Made by a program: the position numbers and the translations under genes
Part shown: in pieces, positions 251 through 17,190 of the stretch
Layout: every line of letters starts with the position of its first letter
Position numbering within the stretch: position 1 is the first letter of the stretch
The notes under the pieces: generated by a model
Databases searched by the model: none
Seen by the model: only the letters and a program-made list of their open reading frames with translations
Told to the model about the DNA's origin: nothing
Origin: Microcoleaceae cyanobacterium
Lineage (GTDB): Bacteria > Cyanobacteriota > Cyanobacteriia > Cyanobacteriales > Microcoleaceae
Direction of reading: 5' to 3'
NCBI GenBank assembly: GCA_049647275.1
Contig: JBARXI010000674.1
Span: 1 to 18,977 of the forward strand
Length of the DNA stretch: 18,977 bases

Positions 251-424
251 ATAAGAGTCTTAATTAAGAGATAGTATTTTTAAAATAAACGAGGTACACA
301 AGTTTGAAATTGTCAGGAATACCGAAGTACAGAATAGGCGAAAATATTGTATTTCATTAATATAACAACCGCTATATACTGACTATATAAATAGCTAAAT
401 TATTGAATATTGGTAGATACTGAA

Positions 425-3400
425 ATGTTTACTATTAACTCATACAATATTTTTTCTCTGAGAACTCCAGGAGGCGATCGCTTCACAGAATTTGTTGATG
501 CGTTGATTAGAGCTGAGGCATATTCTCAAGGTATCCCAATGTCAGGAATTTCAACTAATCTACGAACTAATCTAGGGGATGGGGGTGTTGATAGTGAAGT
601 TCGTCAAGCTATTCCCACCAGTCAAACTGGATGGTTTAGCGTACCCACCTGCTGGCAGTATAAGGCAACTCAATTTAAAGCAATTTCTGACTCGGAACTT
701 CTGAAAGAAGTTAACAACTATTATGCAAAAGAATTAATTCAAAAAAATTATGGTTATCGGTTTTGTATATGTGATGATTTAACTCCAACTAAGAAAAGTA
801 AATGGGAAAAAATTCTTAATGATGAAGTTAAAAAGCTCAATTCTTTAGCAGAAGCTCAGGTAGTTACTGCTTCTGATTTAGCTGCATGGGCTAGTCAATA
901 TCCAGCAGTTATCGTTCGATTTTTTAAACCAGAACTTTTAAGTTGTCTTACTTTTGAAGATTGGGGAGAAAGAATAACCGAATTAACTCCTAAATTTGTA
1001 GAAATAAAAAGTTGGGATTCTGTTGAACAGAGAATTATTGAACATACTAACTTTAACCTTCCTTGCCACAAAGTTATTTTGCCAATTCAAGGTGAATCAG
1101 GAGTTGGAAAAACCAGGTTAGTCTATGAATCATTATTAACTGTTGGGGCAATTTCATTAGTGGTCTATACGAAAGATAATCGAGCCTTAAAAATTGCCTA
1201 TTCATTAGTTCGGGATACCTCAACAAAAGCGATATTAATTGCAGATGAATGTTTGCCAGAAACTCAAGAAAAACTCAAATATATTCTGAACAAAATTAAA
1301 GACAGAGTACGGGTTATTTGTATTGATAATTCTGGAGAAGGTATTTCTTTTACAGAACAGGTTTGGCTAACTCGGATACCAGAAAATGAGCTTGATAAAA
1401 TATTAGAGCAAAATTTTGAAACAGTTTCTCCACAACGTCGTCTTACTTATGTCAGACTATCAAAAGGTTTTGTAAGATTAGCAGCAGACCTCTGTACTCA
1501 AGATGCTAATATTATTGCTCAAGGAAACTTCGGTTCGGTTTTGCAGGATGTGAGAAGTTATCTCAAACTAAGGTTGAATTATGACGATCAAAAGCTCAGG
1601 ATAATAGAAGCAATTTCATTATTTCAAAAAGTAGGATATCGTGACAATGTTAAAGCAGAACTCGAAGAACTGTGTCAAATTACAAGTCTGAAATTAGATA
1701 AAGAAAACCTTCTAGAAATAGCGAGCCGTTTGAAAGACATACCAGGTTTTTTTGCATTTGCCGGACGTTATATTTATATCACCCCAGAAATTATTGCTCA
1801 AGTGACATTTGAGGGAGCATGGCAGAGATGGATAGAATATGACCCCGATGCTTTTCTTTCACAAATTCCAGTATCTTTAATTGAGTCATTTCTCTATAGT
1901 GTTTCTACCAGAGCTTCCCAAGAAAATCGTAGTATTGTCGCTCGATTTTTTCGGAATTTGATTGCTGAATTTAAACCGAATGATTTAACTGATTTTGCCA
2001 AGGTTAACCGTCTAGTTATTTTAGTAAAAACTGACCCTGAATATTATTTTCCAAGGCTGGCACAAATAATTGATAAATCTTCAGAAGCAGAGCTGTTGAA
2101 AGTATCTGGTGGTTATTGGGAAAATTGGGGAACTAGAAGATTATTAGTATGGCTAGTAGAAAGTATAGCTGCATTTCCCGAATTTTTCTTTGATGCAGAG
2201 TCAATACTTTGGAAGTTAGCATTAGCAGAAACAGAACCTAATTTAGCTAATAATGCTACAAGAATTTGGCAACAACTATTTCAAATTTTAAATTCGGGAA
2301 CAGCAACTCCATTTATCACTAGAATTAAGAGACTAGAGGAAAGGTTATTTACTGAAAATAAAGAGGAAACATCTCTAGCGCTAGAAGGCTTAAGTAATAG
2401 TCTAAAAATAAACATAGTATGGAGTGTTGTTGATTTATCTGTATTTGCTGGTCGAATTGTACCTAAAAATTGGCAACCTGAAAATTCCTCAGAACTAAAA
2501 GAATGTCTTGACTTAGCAGTGAATCTTTTAATTAAAGTTGCCAGTGCCGATAATTCTTTTCTTCGTCTTAGTGCACTGCAAATAGCAATACAGCATCTCA
2601 GGACTTTGCTACTAAATAATTATCTAGACAAAATTAAGACAGTTTTCATACCAGAAAAATTACCAGAAGATATTCTGTTGTCTTTAATCAATAAATTAGA
2701 ATATTTTGTCCGATTCAATCCTAATTTAAATGTAGATATTCAGCAATGGCTTCAAAATTTAACTCCTAATAATTTACATGGCAGGTTAATTCAGATATTA
2801 AGTCAATCTCCTTGGTCTCATTCACGAATAGAAAATCAGGAATCTTGGTATCAAGAAATCGATGAAATTGCTCAACAGTTTTGCCAAAATCCAGAACTTC
2901 TTATATCGGAGATGAAATGGCTTTGCTCCCCTCAAGCAATTAGTTCTTGGGCATTAGGTAATGCACTAGGAAAATACGATACTCAAGCAGTTTGTTTAAA
3001 AGCAATTATGAATGGAGCTACAAACACATCGGCTACTGATTTAGCAAGAGAATATATCAGCAGTTTAGTAATTAATTATCCACGACATATAGCCTTAGTT
3101 AATAATTGGATTGACAAACTAGAAACCCAAGTACCAAAAATTGCCTATGAACTATTTATGGCAGGGGGTCATGCGACTAAAGCAATCGAAAGAACTTTAA
3201 ACCTAATTGATAAAGCAGTCTTGCCATTAGCATATCTTGATAGATTTAGTCTGATGATTGCTAAACATCAACTTTCAGCAGAAGACTTTGGTGAAATTCT
3301 TAAACCCTTGATTCAGTCTGTAAAAGAAGAGAAAAATATATCTGCAATTGAGACAACAATTAGATTAGTTTCCCATCAGCTTAGGATTGAAGAAACTGAA

Positions 3401-4102
3401 AAATCATCCCAATTTTTAGCAAAAACTACCATTCAGAATTTGATTTGGGAGTTATTAGAAGCTACTACAGAAGAAACTGGTAGAGAATATGAATCTTGGG
3501 CAGAGATTATCATAAAAATGGCAAAATATAATATTGAAAAAGTTGCTCGAATCACTAGCTCTGCACTGGTAACTAAAAATGATGAGCATAAATTTAGAGC
3601 CGAGGAAATATTAATAGACTTAGCAAAAGATTATCCAGAAATAGTAATAGAACAAATAGGAGAAATCATTTTATATGAACAACAAGGATGGCATTTTTTG
3701 ATTGCACAATACCCCTTCCTAATTCAACCTCTTCCACTTGATACTGTGAAAAAATGGCTTAGTTTAGTTGGTGTGGAGGGAGCTCGAAAAATTGCCGAAC
3801 AACTTCCTATTCCTTATATTAATCAAGACGGTAAAGCTGTCGTTCCCCCTCTTACAGAATTTGTTTTCTCAGAATTTAAAGATGATGATGAAACCTTCCA
3901 AAAATTTTGTTACAGCTCACATAACCTGCAGGTTTATTCTGGAGATATAAAAGCTCACAAAAAGAAGGAAGCTGAAGATGCTAAAAAATTTCTCAACCAT
4001 CCCCTGCGAAGAATAAAGGAATGGGCATTATATGAAATTGATAACTCTAAACAAGAAGCTGAATATTGGCATCAGATTGATAATGAAACTAGCATCCCCT
4101 AA
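425..4102 (+). CDS. Large multidomain protein: N-terminal Mrr/PD-(D/E)xK-like nuclease motif, P-loop NTPase, and a long C-terminal region inferred to be alpha-helical repeats (Avs/STAND-like candidate defence NTPase)
   Basis: Uninterrupted ORF of 1230 codons from TTG 410; the first ATG is at 425. GDGGVD (575-592) followed by WQYK (653-664) resembles the Mrr-type D...QxK nuclease core. Walker A GESGVGKT is at 1091-1114 and Walker B-like AILIADEC at 1229-1252. The remaining roughly 900 aa show no motif I can recognise, so the helical-repeat call is inference. Confidence 0.65.
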   Translation: MFTINSYNIFSLRTPGGDRFTEFVDALIRAEAYSQGIPMSGISTNLRTNLGDGGVDSEVRQAIPTSQTGWFSVPTCWQYKATQFKAISDSELLKEVNNYYAKELIQKNYGYRFCICDDLTPTKKSKWEKILNDEVKKLNSLAEAQVVTASDLAAWASQYPAVIVRFFKPELLSCLTFEDWGERITELTPKFVEIKSWDSVEQRIIEHTNFNLPCHKVILPIQGESGVGKTRLVYESLLTVGAISLVVYTKDNRALKIAYSLVRDTSTKAILIADECLPETQEKLKYILNKIKDRVRVICIDNSGEGISFTEQVWLTRIPENELDKILEQNFETVSPQRRLTYVRLSKGFVRLAADLCTQDANIIAQGNFGSVLQDVRSYLKLRLNYDDQKLRIIEAISLFQKVGYRDNVKAELEELCQITSLKLDKENLLEIASRLKDIPGFFAFAGRYIYITPEIIAQVTFEGAWQRWIEYDPDAFLSQIPVSLIESFLYSVSTRASQENRSIVARFFRNLIAEFKPNDLTDFAKVNRLVILVKTDPEYYFPRLAQIIDKSSEAELLKVSGGYWENWGTRRLLVWLVESIAAFPEFFFDAESILWKLALAETEPNLANNATRIWQQLFQILNSGTATPFITRIKRLEERLFTENKEETSLALEGLSNSLKINIVWSVVDLSVFAGRIVPKNWQPENSSELKECLDLAVNLLIKVASADNSFLRLSALQIAIQHLRTLLLNNYLDKIKTVFIPEKLPEDILLSLINKLEYFVRFNPNLNVDIQQWLQNLTPNNLHGRLIQILSQSPWSHSRIENQESWYQEIDEIAQQFCQNPELLISEMKWLCSPQAISSWALGNALGKYDTQAVCLKAIMNGATNTSATDLAREYISSLVINYPRHIALVNNWIDKLETQVPKIAYELFMAGGHATKAIERTLNLIDKAVLPLAYLDRFSLMIAKHQLSAEDFGEILKPLIQSVKEEKNISAIETTIRLVSHQLRIEETEKSSQFLAKTTIQNLIWELLEATTEETGREYESWAEIIIKMAKYNIEKVARITSSALVTKNDEHKFRAEEILIDLAKDYPEIVIEQIGEIILYEQQGWHFLIAQYPFLIQPLPLDTVKKWLSLVGVEGARKIAEQLPIPYINQDGKAVVPPLTEFVFSEFKDDDETFQKFCYSSHNLQVYSGDIKAHKKKEAEDAKKFLNHPLRRIKEWALYEIDNSKQEAEYWHQIDNETSIP

Positions 4103-4182: not shown

Positions 4183-4329
4183 ATATTATGTCCGGATAAT
4201 TAGGTATAAAAAAACTTTCTGTTTCCTATTCTCCTTGATCTTTATTTTTCCTCCCTGTTCCCTGTTCCCTGTTCCCTGTTCCCTATTACCTATTACCGTT
4301 TATTACAACTATTCAACCGGACATGATAT
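4183..4329. repeat. Hairpin element with 13-bp terminal inverted repeats enclosing an STRR-like heptamer array (CCCTGTT x4 plus degenerate CCCTATT/ACCTATT)
   Basis: atattatgtccgg (4183-4195) matches the reverse complement of ccggacatgatat (4317-4329) at 12/13 positions. Four perfect CCCTGTT heptamers span 4253-4280, with degenerate units to about 4301. The element lies between the convergent ends of the NTPase and VOC genes. Confidence 0.8.
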
Positions 4330-4334
4330 TACAT

Positions 4335-5351
4335 TCACTTACTAACTAAATTCCAAAAATATCCATCAGGAGCAACAAAAGAAAAACTCTGTTCCCCAAA
4401 CTCATTACTAACAATATCCGTCACCTTTTCAGCAACAGAATTTTTAACCCGATGAAAATAAAAATCTATATCCCCCACTCGATAAGTATACAAAGACATT
4501 CCCAAACAACCAGGATGCGACTTATCAAAACAACCCTCTAACTTAACCGCTTCAGGAAACCGAATAATATACATCCTACCCGACCGCGCCAACTGCCAAT
4601 TTACAGACGAACGCGGGTCATCAAAAGCAGTAACAGTAAACCTTTCCCCAGGTTGCAAATCAAAAATTTGCCTAGCCGCCTCCGAACTCTCATAACTCGT
4701 CTCATCATCATCCCGCGACCGTAACAACCCCAACACATCCTCATAAAACCGCAACGTTTCCTTACTATCATCCTGTACCACCATCCCTGCATGAGTCACC
4801 TGACTACTTTTAAAAGCAGATGCTTGATTAATATTGCCGTAGTCAGGCACATTATAATTAAAACGTTCAAACAACACCTGGCGCGTCAAGGGTTGCAACA
4901 ACATCATTTCCCGCACTCCCACCGCCGGATCGATAAATGGGCGACCCTTATCCATTTTATAAATGATCTCCCATTGGGGAGCAGTGTATTTAATAGGTAA
5001 ACCCCCCACTTTCGCATCTTCAGCATGATTATGAATATTCAAAACATCAGTCGTTAACATCGTCGCCCAACGGTTACCCTTCACTTTCATTGAACTCATT
5101 TGCAAGCCTTCATTAGTAGGGTTTTCCCAAACCATCAGCCGAATCAAACCATGATCGGAATTTTGGTGGTAAAGTCGAATAGACCGTAAACTGGAATTTA
5201 CCCCATATAAATTGTTCACTGTAGGGGCGGTTAATTCTCCTATTTGCCCGATGCGATAGCCAAACTGTTCCCAATATTGAATTATTAATAAGGGTTCGGT
5301 AATGCCAATACAGACTTCATAGATACCTTCGATAGTAGGATTTTGATTCAT
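4335..5351 (-). CDS. Two-domain VOC (glyoxalase/bleomycin-resistance/dioxygenase) superfamily protein
   Basis: Clean 338-aa ORF with an ATG start. Segments such as THAGMVVQDDSKETLRFYEDVLGLL and IEGIYEVCIGITEP...YWEQFGY resemble the beta-alpha-beta-beta-beta modules of VOC proteins. The family call is from memory of motif shape only. Confidence 0.55.
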   Translation of the reverse strand: MNQNPTIEGIYEVCIGITEPLLIIQYWEQFGYRIGQIGELTAPTVNNLYGVNSSLRSIRLYHQNSDHGLIRLMVWENPTNEGLQMSSMKVKGNRWATMLTTDVLNIHNHAEDAKVGGLPIKYTAPQWEIIYKMDKGRPFIDPAVGVREMMLLQPLTRQVLFERFNYNVPDYGNINQASAFKSSQVTHAGMVVQDDSKETLRFYEDVLGLLRSRDDDETSYESSEAARQIFDLQPGERFTVTAFDDPRSSVNWQLARSGRMYIIRFPEAVKLEGCFDKSHPGCLGMSLYTYRVGDIDFYFHRVKNSVAEKVTDIVSNEFGEQSFSFVAPDGYFWNLVSK

Positions 5352-5532: not shown

Positions 5533-6027
5533 GTGACAACAGTAAAAAATATGGTATGTTTTGTTAAGCTAGAAATTATTGAATCGGCTAAAGAACTGAA
5601 AACAATACTAGGTCAACAAACAGAATGGAAGCAAAAACAAAGGATACAAGCTTTATACTGGCTCAAAATAGGAGCGGCTGAAACTATCGAACATATATCA
5701 GTATTATTAGGATGTCATCGTACTACTGTATCAAGATGGTTTACTATCTATAGAAAAGTTGGTATAGAAGGTTTATTGGAGAAAAAAAAAATTTCAGGTA
5801 GACCTAGAAAAATATCAGCTATAGCTGAGGAAAAGCTCAAATTTGAATTACAACAAATGGAAGGTTTTAGTAGTTATAGTGAAGTACAAATATGGTTGAA
5901 AGCAATGTGGGATATTGATTTACCATACTCAACAGTACATAGGTATGTTCGTTATGGTTTAAAAGTTAAATTAAAAGTGCAACCTCCCTTAAGAAGTAAA
6001 CAAAAACTAACGGATGTTGAATATTAA
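5533..6027 (+). CDS. IS630-family transposase N-terminal HTH fragment; the DDE catalytic domain is missing
   Basis: 164-aa ORF with a GTG start. Paired HTH region ...ISVLLGCHRTTVSRWFTIYRKVGIEGLLEKKKISGRPRKIS... and ...YSTVHRYVRYGLKVKLKVQPP.. are typical of IS630/Tc1-type OrfA. The ORF stops where the DDE domain should begin, and nothing DDE-like is readable downstream in any frame. It contains an A10 run at 5782-5791. Confidence 0.65.
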   Translation: MTTVKNMVCFVKLEIIESAKELKTILGQQTEWKQKQRIQALYWLKIGAAETIEHISVLLGCHRTTVSRWFTIYRKVGIEGLLEKKKISGRPRKISAIAEEKLKFELQQMEGFSSYSEVQIWLKAMWDIDLPYSTVHRYVRYGLKVKLKVQPPLRSKQKLTDVEY

Positions 6028-6061: not shown

Positions 6062-6182
6062 TAAAGACGCACCAAGAAAAATGCCATAACCTCTAGTGAA
6101 AGTGGTTAGTTAAAAAATTAAAAAAAATTAATTTATGGAAAAAGGTGATACTTAGGTGTTTATATGTTTGCGCAGTATGACC

Positions 6183-6290
6183 TAGTAGTCTGTCAACTTT
6201 GAAATGATGGATATATTTTTGTAACTTTTATTGTTGGGGTAATGCTTTTTGGGATTGGCTATCCCTCAAAACTATCTTGACAGACCACTA
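6183..6290 (+). mobile_element. MITE family A, copy 1 (about 108 bp, TIR tagtagtctgtcaa / ttgacagaccacta)
   Basis: The 14-bp terminal inverted repeats match at 13/14. The internal sequence is recognisably the reverse complement of 9181-9289 (shared aatgctttttgggatt.gcta.ccctcaaaactatcttgacagacc). Confidence 0.8.
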
Positions 6291-6908
6291 GGAAAACCAA
6301 TATCTGGTAAAAAAATCTCATAGTAAAAGTGGTCACTCTCAAATGTATAAAACCCAGACCCCTTAAAAATATAAATGTAAATATTTGCAGCTATAGCAAT
6401 CCTAAATCATTTGTAAAATTCTTGGACTTCTTAAAAACTTCCTACTTCTGCCTCCCCCCTTTCAAAGGGGGGTAGGGGGGATGCCTCCTGCCTTCCTATA
6501 GCAATAAATTTTAACGCCTACCTACTTAGTTAGCCTTAGCTGAAAAAATTCTCAAGTTAAGATAAGTAAGAGACAGAGGGCAAACATTTTATTGGTACTA
6601 ATCAGTAGTTAAGTACAAATAAATGTTTTCTACCGAATGCTGCAAAAAAAAATAAAAAATATGAAAATGAAGTTAGAAGCCAGTTTTTAAAAAGTTTTCA
6701 CTCTGGGAAATCTCCATCGCTATTTTACTAATAATGAAACCTACTTACTTATCTTTTGATGTACCTTATAACCTCTACCTAATGCTTAAGTTTTAATGAG
6801 TTATAACCAAATTTGGTTATTAAACAGTATTTATCTTCTATCCCCAAATCTTATTAGCCAAAGACTTTAACTATTTTGAATACCCTGTTACTAAGGCAAA
6901 CTTGGTAT

Positions 6909-7036
6909 TATAGCAATTCCCAAAAAGCGTGAGGTACAAAATTTTAGGTTTTAGGGAACAGGGAACACCGGAGCTGGGAACAGGGAATAAAAAGACCAAA
7001 AGATAACTGTACCTCACGACCTTGGGAAACGCTATA
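6909..7036 (+). mobile_element. MITE family C, copy 1 (128 bp): roughly 30-bp TIRs enclosing GGGAACA-type heptamer repeats
   Basis: tatagcaattcccaaaaagcgtgaggtaca (left) pairs with tgtacctcacgaccttgggaaacgctata (right). The interior is gggaacagggaacaccggagctgggaacagggaat. A second copy lies at 16357-16484. Confidence 0.8.
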
Positions 7037-7045
7037 TATAAAATT

Positions 7046-7181
7046 CAGGAATTTTTCATTCTAAACTGGGCTATTTTATCTATTTATCAAACTATATTAT
7101 TTCAAACTTTAGAGAATTTATCTTTTGCTGAGGTAAAAATCAATTTGATTCATTGGCAAAATCTAGAACGAAATGACCCTG
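7046..7181 (+). mobile_element. MITE family B, copy 1 (about 136 bp, TIR caggaatttttcattctaaa / tctagaacgaaatgaccctg)
   Basis: The element has terminal inverted repeats, and its internal blocks (tttagagaatttatctttt, attcattggcaaaatctagaacgaaatgaccctg) match the reverse complement of 9600-9733. Confidence 0.75.
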
Positions 7182-8248: not shown

Positions 8249-9124
8249 CTATATTTCCTCTAGACTACTGACATTTTTTAATTCTAAGTCTGGGCAAGTT
8301 CGTTTAATCAAACCTGTCAGAACTTTTCTCGGACCAACTTCCACCACTTTTTCTATTCCCATTTCTGATAATTTCAAGGATGTTTCTCGCCACCTTACAC
8401 CGTTTGTCATTTGTTGAGAAAGGCGCTGTTTTATTGTAGCTGCATCTGTAGTGGGACTCGGTTCAAAATTAGAGATTACTGGAACTTTTGCATCAGCGAA
8501 TTTTACAGATTCTAATATTTGTTGAAATTCTGTAGATGCAGACTGCATTAAAGGAGAATGAAACGCACCAGAAACATTTAATTTAACTGCACGTTTTGCT
8601 TTAACTTTGCTTAGTAAAGTTTCAACTGCTTCTGGTGTACCAGATATGACAACTTGAGCAGAACTATTATCATTTGCTAAAACTAGATCGGGGATTTTCT
8701 CAAGTTGTTCTTGAAGCTGTTTTTGGTCAAATCCAATTAAAGCAGCCATCTGACCGCTAGCCACATTATTCATTAATTCGGCACGTTTTTTTACTAAATT
8801 TAATCCTGTTTCAAAGTCAAATACTCCTGCCACATACAGAGCAACATATTCTCCTAAACTGTGACCGGCAACGAGGTTTGGTTGCAAAGAACGAGTCAAC
8901 ATTTCGTCTGCTAATATGCTTTCTACTACATATAAACAGGGTTGAGTATAGAGAGTTTGAGATAATTTTTCTTCTTCATTTTGGCAAATTTCTGTTATAG
9001 ACCAACCTAAAATTTGCTCGGCTTGCTCAAATTTTTCTTTGGCAGATGGCAAGTATAATAAATCTACTCCCATCCCTATTTTTTGAGAACCTTGACCGGG
9101 AAATACCCATGCTGTTTTTGTCAT
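8249..9124 (-). CDS. fabD: Malonyl-CoA:ACP transacylase FabD
   Basis: MTKTAWVFPGQGSQKIGMG N-terminus and active-site GHSLGEY are both diagnostic of FabD. The ORF track extends to a TTG at 9163, but the ATG at 9124 gives the canonical N-terminus. Confidence 0.93.
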   Translation of the reverse strand: MTKTAWVFPGQGSQKIGMGVDLLYLPSAKEKFEQAEQILGWSITEICQNEEEKLSQTLYTQPCLYVVESILADEMLTRSLQPNLVAGHSLGEYVALYVAGVFDFETGLNLVKKRAELMNNVASGQMAALIGFDQKQLQEQLEKIPDLVLANDNSSAQVVISGTPEAVETLLSKVKAKRAVKLNVSGAFHSPLMQSASTEFQQILESVKFADAKVPVISNFEPSPTTDAATIKQRLSQQMTNGVRWRETSLKLSEMGIEKVVEVGPRKVLTGLIKRTCPDLELKNVSSLEEI

Positions 9125-9180
9125 TTTGATATTATTTATATTCCTTTGATTTTGACTACTCAAATATTTTTTTCAAGCCC

Positions 9181-9289
9181 TACTGGTCTGTCAAGATAGT
9201 TTTGAGGGTTAGCTAATCCCAAAAAGCATTAGCCCAAAATCACGCGCCTGCAAAAATCTATCCATCATTTTAAATTTGACAGACTATTA
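9181..9289 (-). mobile_element. MITE family A, copy 2 (inverted relative to copy 1), 57 bp upstream of the fabD ATG
   Basis: TIRs are tactggtctgtcaa / ttgacagactatta. The interior is the reverse complement of copy 1 with scattered substitutions. Confidence 0.8.
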
Positions 9290-9599
9290 GATTTACAGTA
9301 AACAACTAATGATTTTTACAAGCTACCTCTTGAAAATGAAAAGGGTCGGTCGAGCAACAATACCAACTGGAAAAAAGTTTGCTACAAATTGGTAGGATGC
9401 ACCGAGTCAGAATGTAGAATGCTTGGTCTGGTGTTATTTCTTTTTCTTTAGACCTATATATATTATTTATTTTTTGTCTATTGACAGCTATTGAGCGTTT
9501 CAATGTGACAAAAATCAATATTAATTTAGGCAGGACATTCTACCCCGCATTTTTAAAAAATATTCACAGGGAAGTCTAAAAATAACTCCTATTATTTGT

Positions 9600-9733
9600 C
9601 AGGGTCATTTCATTCTAGATTTTAGCAATGAATTTACTTACTTTCAGATAGGGAAAGATAAATTGTCTAAAGCTCGAAATAACCTCTTTTCGTAAATACA
9701 TAACATGACACAGTTTAGAATGAAATAGCCCTG
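9600..9733 (-). mobile_element. MITE family B, copy 2 (inverted relative to copy 1)
   Basis: It starts cagggtcatttcattctaga and ends tttagaatgaaatagccctg. Its reverse complement aligns by eye with 7046-7181. Confidence 0.75.
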
Positions 9734-9919
9734 ATTATTTGTAGCATTGTTTGATTAAATTGGTATAAGCAGGTACACAAAATTAATTAAACATTTAGCA
9801 AAACGGAATTCTTTATGCTTTAAACATTACATAGAATAAAACGTTTTTCCAGAGTAGTTGTGGCAAATTAATAGTAAAGATCGGGCGACAGGCAAGAGAC
9901 AACAGGAAACAGTTTTTGA

Positions 9920-10290
9920 TTATTTCAATTGATTAACAAGAGAAATAATCATTCTGCTTTCTTCTTTTCGTTCATCTATGATTAATTCCACGTCATTAAA
10001 CGTACAAAACGTACATAACTTTATTTTTGTTGATAGAATGAAGATGTGTCTCTAATTCATTTACACCAAGCCCGAGCAATATTTAAAAATTGAGCATAAT
10101 CTCCCGCGGATATTCTGGCATCACCCTCGGCAATATTTGCGGGAAGAGAAACCGAAGCTCTTGTTATTTGTTGAATCATGCCATAAGTCTCTCCTTTTGG
10201 AAACTTTTTAGTTAGGGAATAATACTTTAAAGCAATTATCATTCCTTTTTCCCACATTTTTAAATCTTTAAAGTCTCTAATTTCATACAT
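9920..10290 (-). pseudogene. Four-helix-bundle protein (23S rRNA intervening-sequence protein / Avd-like family), disrupted by frameshifts
   Basis: The 77-aa ORF (10057-10290), FKDLKMWEKG...LTKKFPKGETYGMIQQITRASVSLPANIAEGDAR...FLNIARA, matches the family N-terminal half and then stops. The expected continuation (VNELETHLHSINKNK, then DVELIIDERKEESRMIISLVNQLK*) is readable in the other two frames down to a stop at 9920-9922. One extra nucleotide near 10060 explains the first shift. Confidence 0.6.
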
Positions 10291-10481
10291 TATTTATTCT
10301 TAGATCAAAATAGTCTGTTGCCTGTTGCCTTCTGGATATGTTGCCTCTTTTCGCTAAAAATTTATCATACTCAAAGCAAAATATCCAAATAAAACTAGGT
10401 AAATAATTTATTTTGTTTGGGTGCTTATCCTAAAATATTGAAGACTATCAAAAATTGTATTACTTTTGACGTTCAAACTCA

Positions 10482-11474
10482 TTAAACACCCCACTCAAAA
10501 ATTGCAGATCCCCAAGTTAAGCCAGCTCCAAAACCAGAAGCTGCAATAATATCTCCCGGTTTAACTTTACCTTCTCTGACTGCTTCATTTAAAGCTAAAG
10601 GTATGGAAGCTGCAGAAGTATTGCCATAATTACCAAGATTACTGATGACTTTTTCTGGGGGAATTTTTAGTCGATCAGCAACAGCATCAATAATTCTTTG
10701 ATTGGCTTGATGGAGTAACAACCAGTCAATTTTTTCCACACCGATATTAGCTCGGAATAAAGCTTTTTCTATAACTTCTGGTACTTTTTTCACAGCAAAG
10801 CGATAGACTTCTTTCCCATTCATCCTAATAGGTTGATAACTACCTTGACTAACAGTTACTCCCTCTATTATTTGTTTTGGTTGAGGTTGGTAAGAAAGAT
10901 TTAAACAACCATTTTGACTACCATCATTACGAAGTTCAAATCCCAGGAGACCGTCACGCTCCGAAGCTTGTAAAATTATTGCACCTGCCCCATCTCCAAA
11001 TAAAACACAGGTGCGTCGGTCTCCCCAGTCTACCCACCTGGACAAAATATCCGCCCCAATAACTAAGATATTGTGATAAACTCCAGTCCGGATAAACTGT
11101 GCCCCTGTGACTAGACCAAATATAAAACCAGAACAAGCTGCCGTTAGATCGAAGGCCACTGCCTTAAAAGCTCCTAACTCTCCTTGAATTTGACTGGCAG
11201 TACCAAATAAATCATCTGGAGTAGATGTCGCGAGAATTATTAGATCGATATCTGCGGGAGTAATATTTGCTTGGGCGATCGCTGCGAGAGATGCTTGAGT
11301 TGCGAGGTTGCATAATGATTCTGCCGTATTTGCCAGTCGTCGGTGATGAATCCCGGTGCGAGAACTTATCCATTCGTCTGAAGTCTCTACTATTTTAGAT
11401 AATCTGTGATTATCCAGAGAAACTTTTGGTGTAGCGGAGCCACTGCCTGTAATGGCAATACCAATATTTGTCAT
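10482..11474 (-). CDS. fabH: Beta-ketoacyl-ACP synthase III FabH
   Basis: 330 aa with active-site AACSGF, HQANQRI and GNTSAASIP motifs and a GFGAGLTWG C-terminus. These are canonical for FabH. Confidence 0.93.
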   Translation of the reverse strand: MTNIGIAITGSGSATPKVSLDNHRLSKIVETSDEWISSRTGIHHRRLANTAESLCNLATQASLAAIAQANITPADIDLIILATSTPDDLFGTASQIQGELGAFKAVAFDLTAACSGFIFGLVTGAQFIRTGVYHNILVIGADILSRWVDWGDRRTCVLFGDGAGAIILQASERDGLLGFELRNDGSQNGCLNLSYQPQPKQIIEGVTVSQGSYQPIRMNGKEVYRFAVKKVPEVIEKALFRANIGVEKIDWLLLHQANQRIIDAVADRLKIPPEKVISNLGNYGNTSAASIPLALNEAVREGKVKPGDIIAASGFGAGLTWGSAIFEWGV

Positions 11475-11550
11475 GTCAGTTTTAGCTTATCTGTTTTCTA
11501 CTACTTTCGACATAGTTGCCATCCACGAAACAAAAATGGGAGAATGGGAG

Positions 11551-11602
11551 CTGCGATGTTTTAACTCGCAGAGGAAATTCGACTCAGCTTGTTTTAACAA
11601 GC
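11551..11602. repeat. Two adjacent hairpins whose loops share the core TGTTTTAAC, between the iscB stop and the fabH start
   Basis: ctgcga-tgttttaac-tcgcag (11551-11571) and gcttg-ttttaa-caagc (11587-11602). They may be right-end structures of the IscB element or a weak terminator. Confidence 0.5.
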
Positions 11603-11613
11603 GTGAATCTTAT

Positions 11614-13089
11614 TTAGGAACTTAGTTGTTCACCATCTGTTCCTTTAAATTTGCGAGTGCGTTTAGATTTAGTCTTATGTAGGGGCGAATGGCCATTCGC
11701 CCCTACAACAGAAAACTCAGTAGTATCAAAAAGGTTAAGTTGAGTAGGAGTTATTAATTGATTAGTTGATTGTTTTACTACTTTGACTTTCTGCTTGACT
11801 AATTCACCAAAACTGTAGCTAAAACCATCAGACTTATGGATATGACGACAATATTTATGGTTAACATCAAAGGTTTGAGTTGATGTTTTGAGTTTAAAGC
11901 TTCCAGTTCTTCTAGTAGCAATTCTGCCAGTATGAGTGCCTGCATATTTGCCTTGAGGAATATCAGCTTTAACAATATCGCCAGTCATAAAACTATAGAA
12001 TGATTTTTGTCTGAGTTTTGGCTGGCCACGAGGAAACCCATATTTATCTGAATTGACCATTTGTCTGCTTCCATGCCCCATAGCTTTAATTAACAAAGGC
12101 TGATCACCTTGAACGTTCAAACTATCAGGAGTAGAAGTTCCGACACAAGCTGCATCTGTCCAATGAGATTTACTAATACCTAAGCGTTTTCGGTTATATT
12201 TGGTTAAACCACCAGAGCCTAATTCGACAGGCAAACCACTAGATTCTAATACTTCCTTAAGCTTCCAACGAGTGGCATTTACCGCAGCAGCATTAGCTAA
12301 TGGTTGTTTCCTCTGTTTGTCTATTAATGCTAATAATTTAGGTCGATCGGACAAAAAGTCTTCAGGTAATTGATGATCCTTTTTCTGGTTACAAGGTACA
12401 CAACTTAAAACTAAGTTAGAAACTCTGTTGCTACCACCTTTAGATTTTGGATGAAAGTGGTCAAGGTTAAATGGTACTTCTCTAGCTCCACAATAAACAC
12501 AAGTTCTGTTGAACTTTTCTAGAAGATACTGTCTAACTTCATAACCTGCTAGTTCGCCCTGCTGATATTCAGTGCCACTAATTTCTCGATTAACCATTTT
12601 CTGAGTATCAAAGCGGACTAATTCTTGACTAATAGCTGATACTGGAGCTAATCTACATAGTTTCTTAACCCAAGATTCTATGTTAAATACTCTGGACATT
12701 AAGCTAGGAGGCAACCAACCTTTAGGATGCTTACGATTGAGAAACCTTGGCTTACGATAACGAGTTTTGCGGTTTCTACGAGAACTTCTCAAAGTTCTAC
12801 GTTTAGTTAAAGCTTCCGAGATTTGAAAACCTCGATGTTCTAATTCTGCACACCAAACAATGTTAGTGTCTGATAACAAAGCTAATCCTGTGAAGCGACT
12901 TCCAGGGTCTAATTTTAGTCTTAATTCCTTTACTTCATTTGCTGATTCCTCCTTCAAAATAATGGTAAATGGATATCTACGAAACACTGCTGCATAGCCT
13001 AGCTTTAATAACTTTCTGGCTACAGCCGGATGTACTGGATTACATAGTTTTCTATTTGTATCCAGTACAAAGACGGAATTTTTATTCAT
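11614..13089 (-). CDS. iscB: IscB, OMEGA-system RNA-guided nuclease (PLMP-like N-domain, split RuvC, Arg-rich bridge helix, HNH)
   Basis: 491 aa. N-terminus SVFVLDTNRKLCNPVHPAVARKLLKLGYAAVFRRYPFTIIL. RuvC-I LKLDPGSRFTGLAL (D61, codon 12907-12909). Bridge helix RRTLRSSRRNRKTRYRKPRF. RuvC-II SQELVRFDTQ followed by EYQQGEL. HNH CVYCG..LDHFHPKSKGGSNRVSNLVLSCVPCNQKK (about 12379-12501). RuvC-III HWTDAACVG. Conserved SDGFSYSF lies near the C-terminus. No internal stops. Confidence 0.9.
   Translation of the reverse strand: MNKNSVFVLDTNRKLCNPVHPAVARKLLKLGYAAVFRRYPFTIILKEESANEVKELRLKLDPGSRFTGLALLSDTNIVWCAELEHRGFQISEALTKRRTLRSSRRNRKTRYRKPRFLNRKHPKGWLPPSLMSRVFNIESWVKKLCRLAPVSAISQELVRFDTQKMVNREISGTEYQQGELAGYEVRQYLLEKFNRTCVYCGAREVPFNLDHFHPKSKGGSNRVSNLVLSCVPCNQKKDHQLPEDFLSDRPKLLALIDKQRKQPLANAAAVNATRWKLKEVLESSGLPVELGSGGLTKYNRKRLGISKSHWTDAACVGTSTPDSLNVQGDQPLLIKAMGHGSRQMVNSDKYGFPRGQPKLRQKSFYSFMTGDIVKADIPQGKYAGTHTGRIATRRTGSFKLKTSTQTFDVNHKYCRHIHKSDGFSYSFGELVKQKVKVVKQSTNQLITPTQLNLFDTTEFSVVGANGHSPLHKTKSKRTRKFKGTDGEQLSS
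11678..11707. repeat. 30-bp perfect palindrome tgtaggggcgaatggccattcgcccctaca inside the 3' end of the iscB ORF
   Basis: Read directly; it is its own reverse complement. It is translated as VVGANGHSPLH in the ORF tail. Confidence 0.9.
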
Positions 13090-13345
13090 TGAAAAACTCC
13101 TATTGCTAGGGTAAAAGTCACATAAGCTATGTTATTAGTCGGTACTTTTCAAATAGCACTGTCTTACCCCTCGTAGGACCGTTTAACTATCTGATTCTAG
13201 AGCTTGAAACTTGTGAGGTATTTCAAGGTAGGACTTTTAACTCTTACTAATAACGTAGTCACTTAAGACTTAGCCTGGTTAGCATATCTAAATCAACGAT
13301 GCACGAAGCTCCGTCTCTTTAGAGCGGGGTGCTGACTAACTGTTG
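13090..13345 (-). ncRNA. Candidate omega RNA scaffold of the IscB element (boundaries approximate)
   Basis: In described IscB loci the omega RNA is encoded immediately 5' of iscB on the same strand and overlaps its start. Here a 279-bp ORF-free gap separates the plsX stop from the iscB ATG. It contains complementary 9-mers (13131-13139 gttattagt / 13246-13254 actaataac). It also contains a 7-bp stem (13203-13209 / 13221-13227) and a repeated GTAGGAC(N)TTTAACT motif (13173-13188, 13228-13242). No covariance model was run. Confidence 0.45.
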
Positions 13346-13368
13346 ACTCCTTTGGATCGGCTGCATAA

Positions 13369-14370
13369 TTAGAAATTAGAACTAATTCGTTCAAGCACTC
13401 TATTTTCAACCGCTTCTTTTGCCGAACGAACTGCATTATATATAGTCGCAGCTTGGGAAGAACCATGACTAATAATACAAACTCCTCCTACTCCCAAAAG
13501 TAATCCTCCCCCATGTTCAACATGGTCTATTCTTTGCTTCATTCGTTTTAAATTAGGTCGTAATATTGCAGTACCTATTTTGCCACTCAGCCCAGGTGTC
13601 AATTCTTCTTTCATCATTTGCAGCACAACATCACCCACTGCCTCAGCAAACTTTAACAAGATATTCCCGGCAAAACCGTCACAGACTATCACATCAAATT
13701 TACCCGAGAGAACATCACGACCTTCTGCATTGCCAATAAACCTAATTTGATTATTGTCTTGCAGCATTTGATAGGTACGCACTGCCAAATCATTTCCTTT
13801 AGATGGTTCCTCCCCAATATTCAACAGTCCCACTTTTGGCTCAGGTCTGCCCAAGACATATTCACTGTAAACTGTCCCCATAACTGCAAACTGCTCTAAA
13901 AATTTCGCACGGCAGTCTACATTTGCCCCAACATCAAGAATCAGGACTGGTTTTTTCGGAATCATCGTGGGTAAAACTGCCCCAATGGCTGGTCGATCTA
14001 TACCTCGTATTCGTCCCAAACGGAGCAAAGCTGAGGCCATAGCAGCTCCTGAGTGACCGGCAGAGACTACGGCATCGGCCTGTTTTTGTTTTACTAAGTC
14101 CATCGCAACGTTAATTGATGCTTTGGACTTGCGTCTAATTGCTGTCAGGGGTTCTTCGTGCATTTCTACCGTATCCTCGGCAGGAACTATTTCTGGTAGA
14201 GGTTGATTTGAATTTTGATGGATACAGGCTTTAATTTGCTGAGGGTCGCCGACTAATAATATTTTGACACCATAGGCTTCTTGTGCTTTTAGTGCTCCCT
14301 CAACAATTTGTGATGGGGCATGGTCCCCACCCATAGCGTCTATTGCGATTCGTGTAGGTATAGTTCCCAT
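13369..14370 (-). CDS. plsX: Phosphate acyltransferase PlsX
   Basis: 333 aa with the IAIDAMGGDHAP N-terminal motif, SAGHSGA and GHGSS-type motifs. Canonical PlsX. Confidence 0.93.
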   Translation of the reverse strand: MGTIPTRIAIDAMGGDHAPSQIVEGALKAQEAYGVKILLVGDPQQIKACIHQNSNQPLPEIVPAEDTVEMHEEPLTAIRRKSKASINVAMDLVKQKQADAVVSAGHSGAAMASALLRLGRIRGIDRPAIGAVLPTMIPKKPVLILDVGANVDCRAKFLEQFAVMGTVYSEYVLGRPEPKVGLLNIGEEPSKGNDLAVRTYQMLQDNNQIRFIGNAEGRDVLSGKFDVIVCDGFAGNILLKFAEAVGDVVLQMMKEELTPGLSGKIGTAILRPNLKRMKQRIDHVEHGGGLLLGVGGVCIISHGSSQAATIYNAVRSAKEAVENRVLERISSNF

Positions 14371-14658
14371 TGACCAAAGTTAAATAAACCTTCAAGATTT
14401 TAACAGTTTATTGATATTTGCTTACTTTTAATTTTTGACTGTTTAAAAATTGCTTTATAGCAAATTAAGTCATAGGTATAAAAGTAAAAAATATCATCCC
14501 AATCTAGACATTGGTTGAAATAAAGTATTTTCTTTTAACCTCTTGAATTTACATATTTCCGGGTGTTTTTTTTGATCCGAATTTGCTGACCAAGCCGTAC
14601 AGGTGGGAAGATATCTCTTGTTATTAAACTCGCTCCCTAATCAAACGCGATTCAGTAA

Positions 14659-15267
14659 CTATCTATTTAATTGATTAGCTGCCTCTTGTAATTTTTCTAC
14701 GATTTTTCGATTTTTAGGACTACGGCTGCCATAGAGTCTAGCACTAAAAATTTTGATTATTTCTAAAATATCTGTTGCTAAATCTTCTTCTTCTGTTGAC
14801 TCAGAAGCATGATTAATAATTACAATTTCTGTACCAAAAATCTCACAAATTGTAAATATTAGTTCGGAACCGAATCTTAATAAACGGTCTTTATTAGTTA
14901 ATACCAAACGTTCTACTTTTTCAGAGCAGATCATTTTAATTAACCTGACTAGCCCTCGTTTTCTGTAATTTATTCCTGAACCTAAATCCCGGATAATTTC
15001 TACTAACCAACCATGATTATTACAGTAGGCTTCTAATACCATTATTTGTCTTTCTAAATCAGCTTTTTGCTCGGAACTAGAGATACAGGCATAAGCAATG
15101 GTTTTACGCTCTCCAGACCTAAGTCCGAGAAGAGTAGCAACGTCATATCGGCGATGTCCATTCTTGGTTCTTTCGGATTGGAGCTTGCCTTCACGTTCCC
15201 ATCTTCTTAGGGTACTTTCTGCTACCCCAAGTAGTTCAGCAGCCCTTCCTATGGAAATTTTGCTCAT
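14659..15267 (-). CDS. tnpA: IS607-family serine recombinase transposase TnpA (MerR-type HTH plus resolvase catalytic domain)
   Basis: 202 aa with IGRAAELLGVAESTLRRWEREGKL..NGHRRY (MerR-like HTH), IAYACISSSEQKADLERQ (catalytic Ser region) and KDRLLRFG...FSARLYGSRS. It appears intact, but no tnpB follows it. Confidence 0.85.
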   Translation of the reverse strand: MSKISIGRAAELLGVAESTLRRWEREGKLQSERTKNGHRRYDVATLLGLRSGERKTIAYACISSSEQKADLERQIMVLEAYCNNHGWLVEIIRDLGSGINYRKRGLVRLIKMICSEKVERLVLTNKDRLLRFGSELIFTICEIFGTEIVIINHASESTEEEDLATDILEIIKIFSARLYGSRSPKNRKIVEKLQEAANQLNR

Positions 15268-15457
15268 TTTCAGAATTTAGCATATTCAATAAATAACTTT
15301 AGCAAACTATCCATACATTTTGATAACTGTTTAATAATTTTTTTCTGGAAATAAAAGTAACAAATAATACTTTAAATATGTCAGTATAAAATGAATATAT
15401 TTACAGCCACCACAAAGGTTCGGACAGTTTTGAAGAGTTGAAACGAAGGAGTAGAAG

Positions 15458-15550
15458 TAATTCCGCTTCAGGCTCCCGACCAGAATCTTCAGAAACATTC
15501 ACGGCTAGAAAATTTCCCATCATAAATTACCCCAAGTTGATGATTGACAA
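15458..15550. repeat. Direct repeat copy 1 (93 bp) of an unexplained non-coding element
   Basis: taattccgcttcaggctcccgaccagaatcttcagaaacattcacggctagaaaatttcccatcataaattaccccaagttgatgattgacaa recurs at 15647-15740 with about 5 differences, including a 1-nt indel. Weaker similarity extends about 30 bp upstream of both copies. Confidence 0.85.
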
Positions 15551-15646
15551 AGGTTTGATGCTTCACTATTGCGTATAGCAAAATAGTAATGAATATATTT
15601 TCTTTTTTTGATTCATAATTAGACCAGCTGTTTGAGTGAATCGAAA

Positions 15647-15740
15647 TAATTCCGCTTCAGACTCCCGACTCAGAATCTTCAGAAACATTCACCGCTAGAA
15701 AATCTCCCATCATAAATTACCCCAAGTTGATGATTGACAA
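15647..15740. repeat. Direct repeat copy 2 (94 bp), 189 bp downstream of copy 1
   Basis: See copy 1. The indel (cccgaccag vs cccgactcag) breaks any shared reading frame, which argues against a coding origin. Confidence 0.85.
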
Positions 15741-16356: not shown

Positions 16357-16484
16357 TATAACAATTCCCAAAAAGCGGGAGGTACAAGATGATAGTTTGT
16401 AGGAAACAGGAAAAAGGGAACAGGAAAAAAGGAATAGAGAATAAAAAAGACAACTGTACCTCAGGCTTCCTGAGAAACGCTATA
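16357..16484 (+). mobile_element. MITE family C, copy 2 (128 bp), inserted into the tnpB remnant
   Basis: tataacaattcccaaaaagcgggaggtaca ... tgtacctcaggcttcctgagaaacgctata. The interior is a degenerate heptamer array (ggaaacaggaaaaagggaacaggaaaaaaggaat). It has the same length and architecture as 6909-7036. Confidence 0.8.
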
Positions 16485-17190
16485 AACTTCTCAAGTTTTA
16501 TCGTCAAGCTGAAGATAAATTAAGTACATTACAGCCAAATAAATAAGTTCAAACTAAAAATCATCAAGCTAGACAAGGAAGACAATAGCAATTTAAGGAA
16601 TTAGGGTAATTATTAGATAACGTAGATGTCATATTTGTCGAAGATGTGCAAATAGTAAATATCTTAAAACCTCATCAGACTCAGCTCAAGAAAAATAGCA
16701 ACTATTTGCCCAATAATAAATCTACTAAATCTGGATTAAATAAATTATTTGCTAATGCTGCAATAGCAGGATTATTAAATGAAATGCTGACTGTGAAAGC
16801 TGGTAATAAAATAGTTGTAGATTTCATAAGGCTTCCTGAGAAACTCTATAAACTTCCCAAGTTTTATCGTCAAGCTGAAAAGAAATTAAGTATATTACAG
16901 CCAAATAAATAAGTTCAAACTAAAAATCATCAAGCTAGACAAGGAAGACAATAGTAATTTAAGGGATTAGGGTAATTATTAGATAACGCAGATTTCATAT
17001 TTGTCGAAGATGTGCAAATGGCAAATATCTCAAAACTTCATTAGACTCAGCTCAAGAAAAATAGCAACTATTTGCCGATTGATTATTCTGCTAAATCTGG
17101 ATGAAATAAATCATTTGCTGATGCTGAAATTGCAGGATTATTAAATGAAATGCTAACTGTGAAAACTGGTAATAAAATAGTTGAAATTAA
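16464..17190 (+). repeat. Tandem duplication, 366-bp period (copy 1 16464-16829, copy 2 16830 to about 17190), within the tnpB remnant
   Basis: ggcttcctgagaaac.ctataaactt starts at 16464 and again at 16830. The following roughly 350 bp align colinearly by eye with scattered substitutions. Both copies begin with the last 21 bp or so of MITE C. Confidence 0.85.

Follow-up and report, generated by a model that had tools for sequence, protein, structure and literature searches.

The closest described relatives of the locus reported here are IscB nucleases, which are ancestral to Cas9, ISC transposons and HEARO RNAs. OgeuIscB and the other solved IscBs (Protein Data Bank (PDB) entries 7utn, 7xht, 8csz, 9liq and 9k30) follow one domain order, namely PLMP, RuvC-I, bridge helix, RuvC-II, HNH, RuvC-III and a domain that interacts with the target-adjacent motif (TAM). 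ISC transposons, exemplified by ISC2-1_GS of Geitlerinema (PMC4810608), are non-autonomous elements of ~1.3-1.8 kb that contain IscB only, start with GTCA/CA at the 5′ end, cause no target duplication and have subterminal hairpins. In the Geobacillus IscB element ISGst, the guide comes from the flank of the transposon right end (RE), the TAM is the TnpA target at the left end (LE), TnpA acts in trans, and the orientation is that of the upstream gene (bioRxiv 10.1101/2023.03.14.532601). Here we describe an IscB element from an 18,977-nt stretch of DNA of Microcoleaceae cyanobacterium (GenBank assembly GCA_049647275.1, contig JBARXI010000674.1), referred to below as the window, where it lies between plsX and fabH. 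It is a routine IscB-omega RNA member of a family first described in cyanobacteria, one more such element in a phylum where they abound, and its protein has already been annotated as IscB. Its ends, guide and GTGG target and TAM are all readable from comparative data, and it can serve as a worked example.

In our reading, which we hold with high confidence, the locus contains a complete ISC element of the IS200/IS605 superfamily that is non-autonomous and has inserted at a GTGG in the end of plsX, in sense orientation with plsX and fabH. The element occupies 11527..13336 of the minus strand (1,810 bp), where the omega RNA gene is followed by iscB and then by a distal end with hairpins. The iscB open reading frame (ORF; 11614..13089, minus) is flanked on the same strand by plsX (13369..14370, minus) and fabH (10482..11474, minus), both assigned from the ORF listing and profile searches, and an ORF-free stretch of 279 bp (13090..13368) separates plsX from iscB. 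An original prediction, made from the DNA letters of the window, had described an IscB gene inserted in sense between plsX and fabH. The orientation holds, but the element is confined to 11527..13336 and does not take up the whole spacer.

The 491-amino-acid product of iscB is an IscB by profile, fold and sequence matches. Its ORF starts with ATG and has zero internal stops. The Pfam profile RRXRR matches with 233 bits over profile positions 1-174/174, the Pfam profiles HNH, HNH_5 and HNH_4 match residues 197-246, and PHROG 2214 spans residues 3-426. NCBIfam NF040563 (guided_IscB) reaches 427.6 bits over residues 6-317 and profile positions 1-314/314, against a curated cut-off of 175 bits. Among the solved IscBs, sequence matches were obtained to TbaIscB (E 9e-33) and OgeuIscB (E 2e-22), while identity over structural alignments to the solved proteins amounts to 17-20%. 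An AlphaFold model with a predicted local distance difference test score (pLDDT) of 74.6 gave IscB-omega RNA-DNA complexes as its best Foldseek matches (8csz, 9liq and 7xht, E 1e-17 to 1e-23). The top seven matches consisted of six IscB complexes and one IsrB complex, with a template modelling (TM) score of about 0.5, a moderate value of the kind expected for a multi-domain protein modelled without its RNA. The identical protein is deposited in GenBank as 'MAG: RNA-guided endonuclease IscB [Microcoleaceae cyanobacterium]'. The identification as IscB and the uninterrupted reading frame, both put forward in the original prediction, are thereby borne out, and the protein does not fall into a non-IscB HNH family.

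All catalytic residues that had been claimed are also in place. The RuvC site is represented by D61 (RuvC-I), E156 (RuvC-II, the Glu of QELVRFD) and H309 with D312 (RuvC-III), the HNH site by D210-H211, N225 and N234, and a CCCC zinc site by C197, C200, C230 and C233. In an alignment with a solved IscB of 495 amino acids (PDB 11hr, chain A), D61 falls on D60, its RuvC-I Asp, and E156 on E192, its RuvC-II Glu. D61, E156, H211, N225, N234, H309, D312 and the four zinc cysteines form invariant columns in 52 aligned homologues and are at least 95% conserved among 110 homologues; D210 is present in the window protein, yet appears on neither list of conserved residues. The bridge helix region contains invariant Arg residues at 97-119 and a predicted helix at 87-105. 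The domain order is the same as in the solved IscBs, the C-terminal TAM-interacting domain included, and the catalytic residues are shared as well. The PLMP-type N-terminal domain was confirmed with one reservation: RRXRR is matched over its full length, but the first Pro of the motif is a Leu. Overall, the 110 homologues have 148 positions with at least 95% conservation, of which the window protein retains 144; the four deviations are P15L, I60L, D266N and G366S.

When compared with relatives, iscB has a ratio of nonsynonymous to synonymous substitution rates (dN/dS) of 0.05-0.08, with saturated dS; the ratio is pairwise and cannot single out the terminal branch. It therefore points to strong purifying selection at the protein level on the iscB lineage. 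RNA-guided, TAM-dependent DNA cleavage would be the expected activity of such a protein.

Directly 5′ of this ORF, the region 13111..13336 (minus) is predicted to encode the scaffold of an IscB omega RNA of the HEARO family (Rfam RF02033). The match is full length (model positions 1-211/211) and reaches 132.3 bits (E 9.7e-28), well above the gathering score of 83 bits, in a covariance-model scan. The original prediction had expected an omega RNA in this 279-bp region, and the scan located it there. HEARO is the sole Rfam match in the window. Its 3′ limit lies 21 nt before the iscB ATG, and its first base (13336) is also where the transposon ends on this side, at what is the RE in TnpA terms. 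Eight related loci also have HEARO upstream of iscB (119-164 bits), and in an alignment of 12 related sequences 19 of the 35 RNAalifold pairs show compensatory changes on both sides. The assignment as omega RNA is based on the covariance model and on this covariation, not on single-sequence folding. A conserved terminal hairpin of GNRA type, CCUAGCAAUAGG (13090..13110, minus), follows the HEARO match and overlaps the GGAG ribosome-binding site of iscB; its four pairs (alignment columns 268-271 with 276-279) are invariant in 12/12 sequences.

The position of the RNA, full length and directly 5′ of an HNH ORF, is that described for RF02033, and in the solved IscBs the omega RNA is likewise directly upstream. 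The 5′ part, in contrast, departs from the Rfam consensus: the second hairpin of the consensus is replaced, the hairpin after P1 is a different one in this clade, and two non-canonical pairs are unique to the window copy.

The limits of the element were set by nine independent copies elsewhere. Close homologues (66-82% amino acid identity) were fetched together with their flanking DNA and their ends were compared, with several of the contigs truncated on one side. Common to the nine independent insertion sites are the 5′ end GTCAGCACCCC (13336), the 3′ end ...CATTTTTGTTTC (11527; ...TTTTC), or both. Similarity between the copies begins exactly at 13336 (GTCAGC) and continues inward, while their upstream flanks are unrelated. 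Directly after the distal end, all nine copies have GTG followed by G, A or T. The iscB-distal end itself (11527..11613, minus; LE in TnpA terms) contains two subterminal hairpins with TTAAAA-type loops, the stems of which covary between copies (GCTTG/CAAGC vs GGCGG/CCGCC and CTGCGA/TCGCAG vs CCGCGA/TCGCGG). These hairpins were also examined by DNA folding, where the single-sequence result was not significant against shuffles, and single-sequence folding of the omega RNA end revealed no separate DNA hairpin above shuffles (z -0.05). In its size, its content, its 5′ start, the subterminal hairpins of its distal end and the lack of a target duplication, the element resembles ISC transposons such as ISC2-1_GS, but it represents a different sequence family.

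The unrelated upstream flanks of the independent copies imply that the guide would be supplied by the 3′ end of plsX, in agreement with the original prediction. Judged by the copies compared, the guide is DNA outside the element and differs from copy to copy. If its length is taken to be 16 nt, as in characterised IscBs, the flank-derived guide of the window copy is AAGGAGTCAACAGTTA (13337..13352, minus), which was formerly plsX coding sequence. Allowing up to two mismatches, this guide matches only its own site in the window. The sole further match in the window has three mismatches, which is chance level, and was rejected as a target.

At the opposite end, GTGG (11523..11526, minus) lies outside the element and represents the native transposase target as well as the presumed TAM of IscB. 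The L003-L010 contigs, in which the element interrupts a gene for acyl-carrier-protein phosphodiesterase (AcpH), allowed this to be assessed. Rejoining the L003 flanks restored the AcpH frame only when 1, 4 or 7 nt of the conserved end were retained, and retention of 4 nt (GTGG) was best, with a Pfam score of 198.9 bits vs 187.9 and 192.0. We therefore take GTGG to be the native target, inserted into without a target-site duplication. This target agrees with the published target sites of ISC elements, cyanobacterial ones included, which are GT|GG, GT|GA and GT|GT (Kapitonov et al. 2016, PMC4810608). Because element and target both start with GT, their junction is ambiguous by 2 nt, and the whole GTGG was placed outside the element by analogy with the Microcystis case verified by Kapitonov et al. 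(PMC4810608).

Meers et al. (bioRxiv 10.1101/2023.03.14.532601) equate the HEARO end with the RE of the transposon and the TAM with the site that TnpA targets beside the LE. The proposed layout, with the guide at 13352..13337, the element at 13336..11527 and GTGG at 11526..11523, fits this scheme, and it likens the element to ISGst both in the source of its guide and in the location of its TAM. The motif itself sets the clade apart: the presumed TAM GTG(G/A/T) differs from the AT-rich TAM of ISGst and from the NWRRNA stated for OgeuIscB in PMC12660989. This IscB clade may be worth trying as a source of compact editors with a simple G-rich TAM.

The insertion site became apparent from the closest relatives, which belong to Dapis, Okeania and Trichodesmium and have PlsX proteins of 86-90% amino acid identity. 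Their PlsX is 8-11 residues longer and ends, for instance, in ...SKYVPESKKSIVSNQ before the stop. At the DNA level, the relatives' sequence AGTCAATAGTTA GTAATCAG aligns to the rejoined flanks of the window, AGTCAACAGTTA GTGGATGG, while the plsX-fabH spacers are otherwise strongly diverged and alignable at their ends only. The rejoined element-free sequence of the window reads ...AAGGAGTCAACAGTTAGTGGATGGCAACTATG.... This alignment of longer plsX ends to the rejoined flanks therefore places the element, as far as the comparison can tell, within the final codons of the ancestral plsX frame and not in neutral spacer, which revises the original view of the plsX-fabH spacer as the insertion site. 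A 7-nt tandem duplication in plsX, TCTAATT TCTAATT (13367..13380, minus), which is a single unit in the relatives, causes a frameshift and gives rise to today's stop codon, 32 nt short of the element; in a reconstruction lacking the duplication, the PlsX frame would extend 12 codons into the omega RNA. The plsX-fabH operon tolerates a 1.8-kb sense insertion that replaces the non-conserved tail of PlsX.

The spacer between these genes is swollen and variable in Dapis, Okeania and Trichodesmium (L011-L029), where it measures 157-2,077 bp; in the other cyanobacteria fetched it is roughly 60-430 bp, mostly 100-300 bp. The 2-kb spacer of L017 contains no ORF of at least 70 amino acids. In these three genera, the spacer seems to act as a sink for non-coding insertions. 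An independent IscB element is found in the plsX-fabH spacer of the Oscillatoriales metagenome-assembled genome (MAG) KTt_bin-1839 (L036, 6170..7165), ~127 nt past the plsX stop. Its HEARO still matches over the full length (126.5 bits), but an in-frame deletion has removed about residues 94-258 of its IscB, and with them the bridge helix, RuvC-II and HNH.

We infer that the element is transcribed, that its nuclease is active, that homing takes place and that read-through reaches fabH. A scan of 11300..14700 on the minus strand predicted neither a sigma-70-like promoter nor an intrinsic terminator, which is weak evidence given that cyanobacterial promoters are poorly covered by such scans, and iscB generally tends to share the orientation of the gene upstream of it (Meers et al., bioRxiv 10.1101/2023.03.14.532601). 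Taken together, these two points suggest expression by read-through: transcription of plsX would run on into the element, the omega RNA and iscB would be expressed from it, and fabH would be reached through the element. After the insertion, the expression of fabH must come either through the element or from within it.

An RNA that starts in the flank would carry the ~16-nt guide fused to the HEARO scaffold and bind IscB. The resulting complex would recognise an element-free allele by its guide match and its GTGG TAM, HNH and RuvC would cut it, and recombinational repair from an occupied copy of the chromosome would put the element back. The occupied site would itself escape cutting, because GTCA stands beside the guide match in place of GTGG. 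Such a role in retention and homing has been demonstrated for IscB and TnpB (Meers et al., bioRxiv 10.1101/2023.03.14.532601). New GTG(G/A/T) sites would be reached only if another part of the genome provided a Y1 TnpA. We call the element non-autonomous because no Y1 TnpA was found among the ORFs of at least 80 amino acids in the 19-kb window, as the original prediction had also stated; iscB is linked to tnpA in only 1.5% of cases (bioRxiv 10.1101/2023.03.14.532601). With a TnpA that would act in trans and an orientation that follows the upstream gene, the element can again be likened to ISGst.

Several observations weigh against a complete and still functional element, the missing TnpA being one of them. 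An empty allele was not found, the spacers of the closest relatives being too diverged. RNA folding, which the original prediction had suggested, gave no significant result for the single window sequence (z -1.3 vs shuffles), and it is the covariation among the 12 relatives that supports a conserved fold. One pair of P1 is broken by a G-to-A change (GCTAAC vs GCTGAC), and so is one pair of the first hairpin (CGGAG vs CGGGG). In the protein, P15L affects the first Pro of the PLMP motif, which is Pro in 96% of relatives, D266N falls on a highly conserved position, and the tail ends in EQLSS where relatives have EQLSLF, several substitutions having removed the terminal LF. The broken pairs in two omega RNA stems, P15L with the three further deviations at positions at least 95% conserved, the reduction of QLSLF to QLSS and the missing TnpA would also suit an immobilised relic in a fatty-acid operon, passively transcribed and in early decay, with no homing or transposition now, and the clearly decayed IscB in the same spacer of L036 offers a precedent. 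Against a relic stand the 491-codon ORF, fully open in a region of 37% G+C, the retention of every catalytic residue and a HEARO score of 132 bits that lies inside the 119-164 bits of the other copies; the low dN/dS, being pairwise, cannot isolate the terminal branch. On balance, we give decay to this stage a minor but real chance, and regard a complete ISC element as the better account of the locus.

The sense orientation within an essential operon, and the distant lineage L036, where a decayed IscB and an intact HEARO occupy the same spacer, could be taken to mean that the host has recruited IscB together with the omega RNA, for instance in the regulation or protection of the plsX-fabH operon. 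In the 19 closest relatives (Dapis, Okeania and Trichodesmium), however, the locus contains neither an IscB element nor, in the plsX-fabH spacers, remnants of one, which therefore indicates a recent, lineage-specific insertion. Furthermore, the ends, the target site and the guide logic are those of a mobile ISC element, and both nuclease sites are intact, unlike in known domesticated regulators of the TnpB type. Domestication is thus very improbable. Even less credit is due to a chimeric join, for which one could cite that the source assembly is a MAG and that the element contains a palindrome. Two Logan contigs of run SRR28062982, an independent assembly that was possibly built from the same reads, are identical to the window in every base and jointly span both junctions: contig 1 covers 15544..11680 (plsX into iscB), and contig 2 covers 11706..10217 (the iscB 3′ end into fabH). 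They reproduce both element junctions, the 7-nt plsX duplication and the end of the iscB ORF. On the same grounds, and with the same proviso about the reads, we rejected assembly errors as the origin of the 7-nt duplication and of the QLSS ending.

A gene for an IS607-type serine recombinase (14659..15267, minus; NCBIfam transpos_IS607, 199.5 bits), on which the original prediction was silent, shares the strand of the element and is located 1.3 kb upstream, and the element might accordingly belong to an IS607-type unit moved by this enzyme. Synteny and substitution rates effectively refute it as the mobilising enzyme. In 13 Dapis and Okeania genomes without the IscB element, the recombinase gene occupies the syntenic position upstream of plsX (89-92% amino acid identity). 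A comparison of six of these genomes gave it a dS of 0.47-0.75 and a dN/dS of 0.06-0.11, values that resemble those of plsX, and plsX separates it from the element. Moreover, iscB was not found associated with serine TnpA (bioRxiv 10.1101/2023.03.14.532601). The gene looks like a domesticated, vertically inherited host gene unrelated to the element. It has no accompanying tnpB and is absent from the Trichodesmium loci.

The one possibly new point about the element is a tail at the C-terminus of its IscB. Most of the cyanobacterial IscBs among the matches have ~428 residues, whereas the subclade of the window protein has an extra tail of ~35-65 residues. In the window copy, this subclade-specific tail comprises residues 430-491 (11617..11802, minus), an extra ~60 residues relative to the solved IscBs. 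It is predicted to be disordered (pLDDT about 30 for residues 438-491) and lies outside the PHROG 2214 profile. Across the subclade (P0002-P0058) the linker is variable and the terminal QLSLF invariant, and a second motif, QLNLF(D) or QLSLF(D), occurs in many members ~30 residues before the end. The window copy has kept an internal QLNLF at residues 450-454 (11728..11742).

QLSLF is the consensus pentapeptide for binding to the beta sliding clamp, with the family pattern QL[SD]LF. In 15 distinct copies of the subclade, its codons vary synonymously (CAA/CAG; CTA/CTT/TTA/TTG; AGT/AGC; TTA/TTG/CTG/CTA; TTT/TTC) and precede several unrelated downstream end sequences. These two findings show that it is the peptide that is conserved and not the DNA, and a DNA constraint imposed by the nearby transposon end was rejected. 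The dN/dS of the tail is 0.14-0.19. In the wider family, four of 150 representatives of 50%-identity clusters end in QLSLF, QLHLF, QMKLF and QLQLL on other linkers, and these sporadic QLxLF-type endings on unrelated linkers of distant clusters suggest repeated gain.

Gomez et al. (2014, PMC3971601) used a QLSLF-type motif to screen transposases for binding to the beta sliding clamp, and noted that cyanobacterial IS200/IS605 OrfB has a putative clamp motif at its C-terminus. As in the clamp tails of transposases, the motif of the IscB subclade is short, sits at the extreme C-terminus and is embedded in a non-homologous, fast-evolving context. It differs from them in that it is found on IscB and not on TnpA or TnpB, that binding is putative, and that the window copy has lost the terminal LF. 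We tentatively propose, as a possibility somewhat short of an even chance, that the subclade tail would tether IscB to the beta sliding clamp and place the nuclease at replication forks. There, single-strand excision of the IS200/IS605 type would produce an empty donor joint, and the sister copy would serve as the repair template. A literature search limited to open-access papers found no paper linking IscB with the clamp. If the proposal is true, an OMEGA nuclease would be physically linked to the replisome, and the timing and place of homing cleavage would become testable.

The part of iscB that encodes the tail also contains a 40-nt palindrome (11673..11712, no strand assigned; inverted repeat I11) with the core GGGGCGAATGGCCATTCGCCCC. 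It encodes VVGANGHSPLHK and marks an in-frame insertion of 18 nt (six residues) that is absent from L001-L003 and present in the homologue P0041. The palindrome occurs once in the window and is the point at which the Logan contigs break. It is probably a small dispersed cyanobacterial repeat.

On the other side of fabH, the fabH-fabD spacer is unusually long (1.3 kb) and contains a truncated gene for a 23S rRNA-intervening-sequence protein (10057..10290, minus; 77 amino acids, profile positions 1-67/106). The fabD gene (8249..9163, minus) is bracketed by segments of 40-86 nt (6182..7181 and 9179..9739) that form inverted repeats with 78-93% complementarity and look like two inverted copies of a repeat or of an element resembling a miniature inverted-repeat transposable element (MITE). 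Further away, an ORF of 164 amino acids (5533..6027, plus) matches only transposase-type helix-turn-helix domains (HTH_32, HTH_29 and HTH_23) and is probably a fragment of an insertion sequence. Heptanucleotide tandem repeats of TCCCTGT are found near it at 4252..4300, and the region 4250..5250 has a raised G+C content and a strongly negative GC skew. An ORF of 1,230 amino acids (410..4102, plus) has no match in Pfam or PHROG.

Upstream of the recombinase gene, two repeats of ~100 nt are found 190 nt apart at 15449..15740. Two direct repeats of 300 nt (16463..17128; 92% identity, 366 nt apart) overlap an ORF of 88 amino acids without a family match. Finally, among the loci fetched for comparison, group I intron matches (Rfam RF00028, 64-69 bits) were detected outside the part of interest, at 10691..10941 of L027 and at 576..837 of L002.

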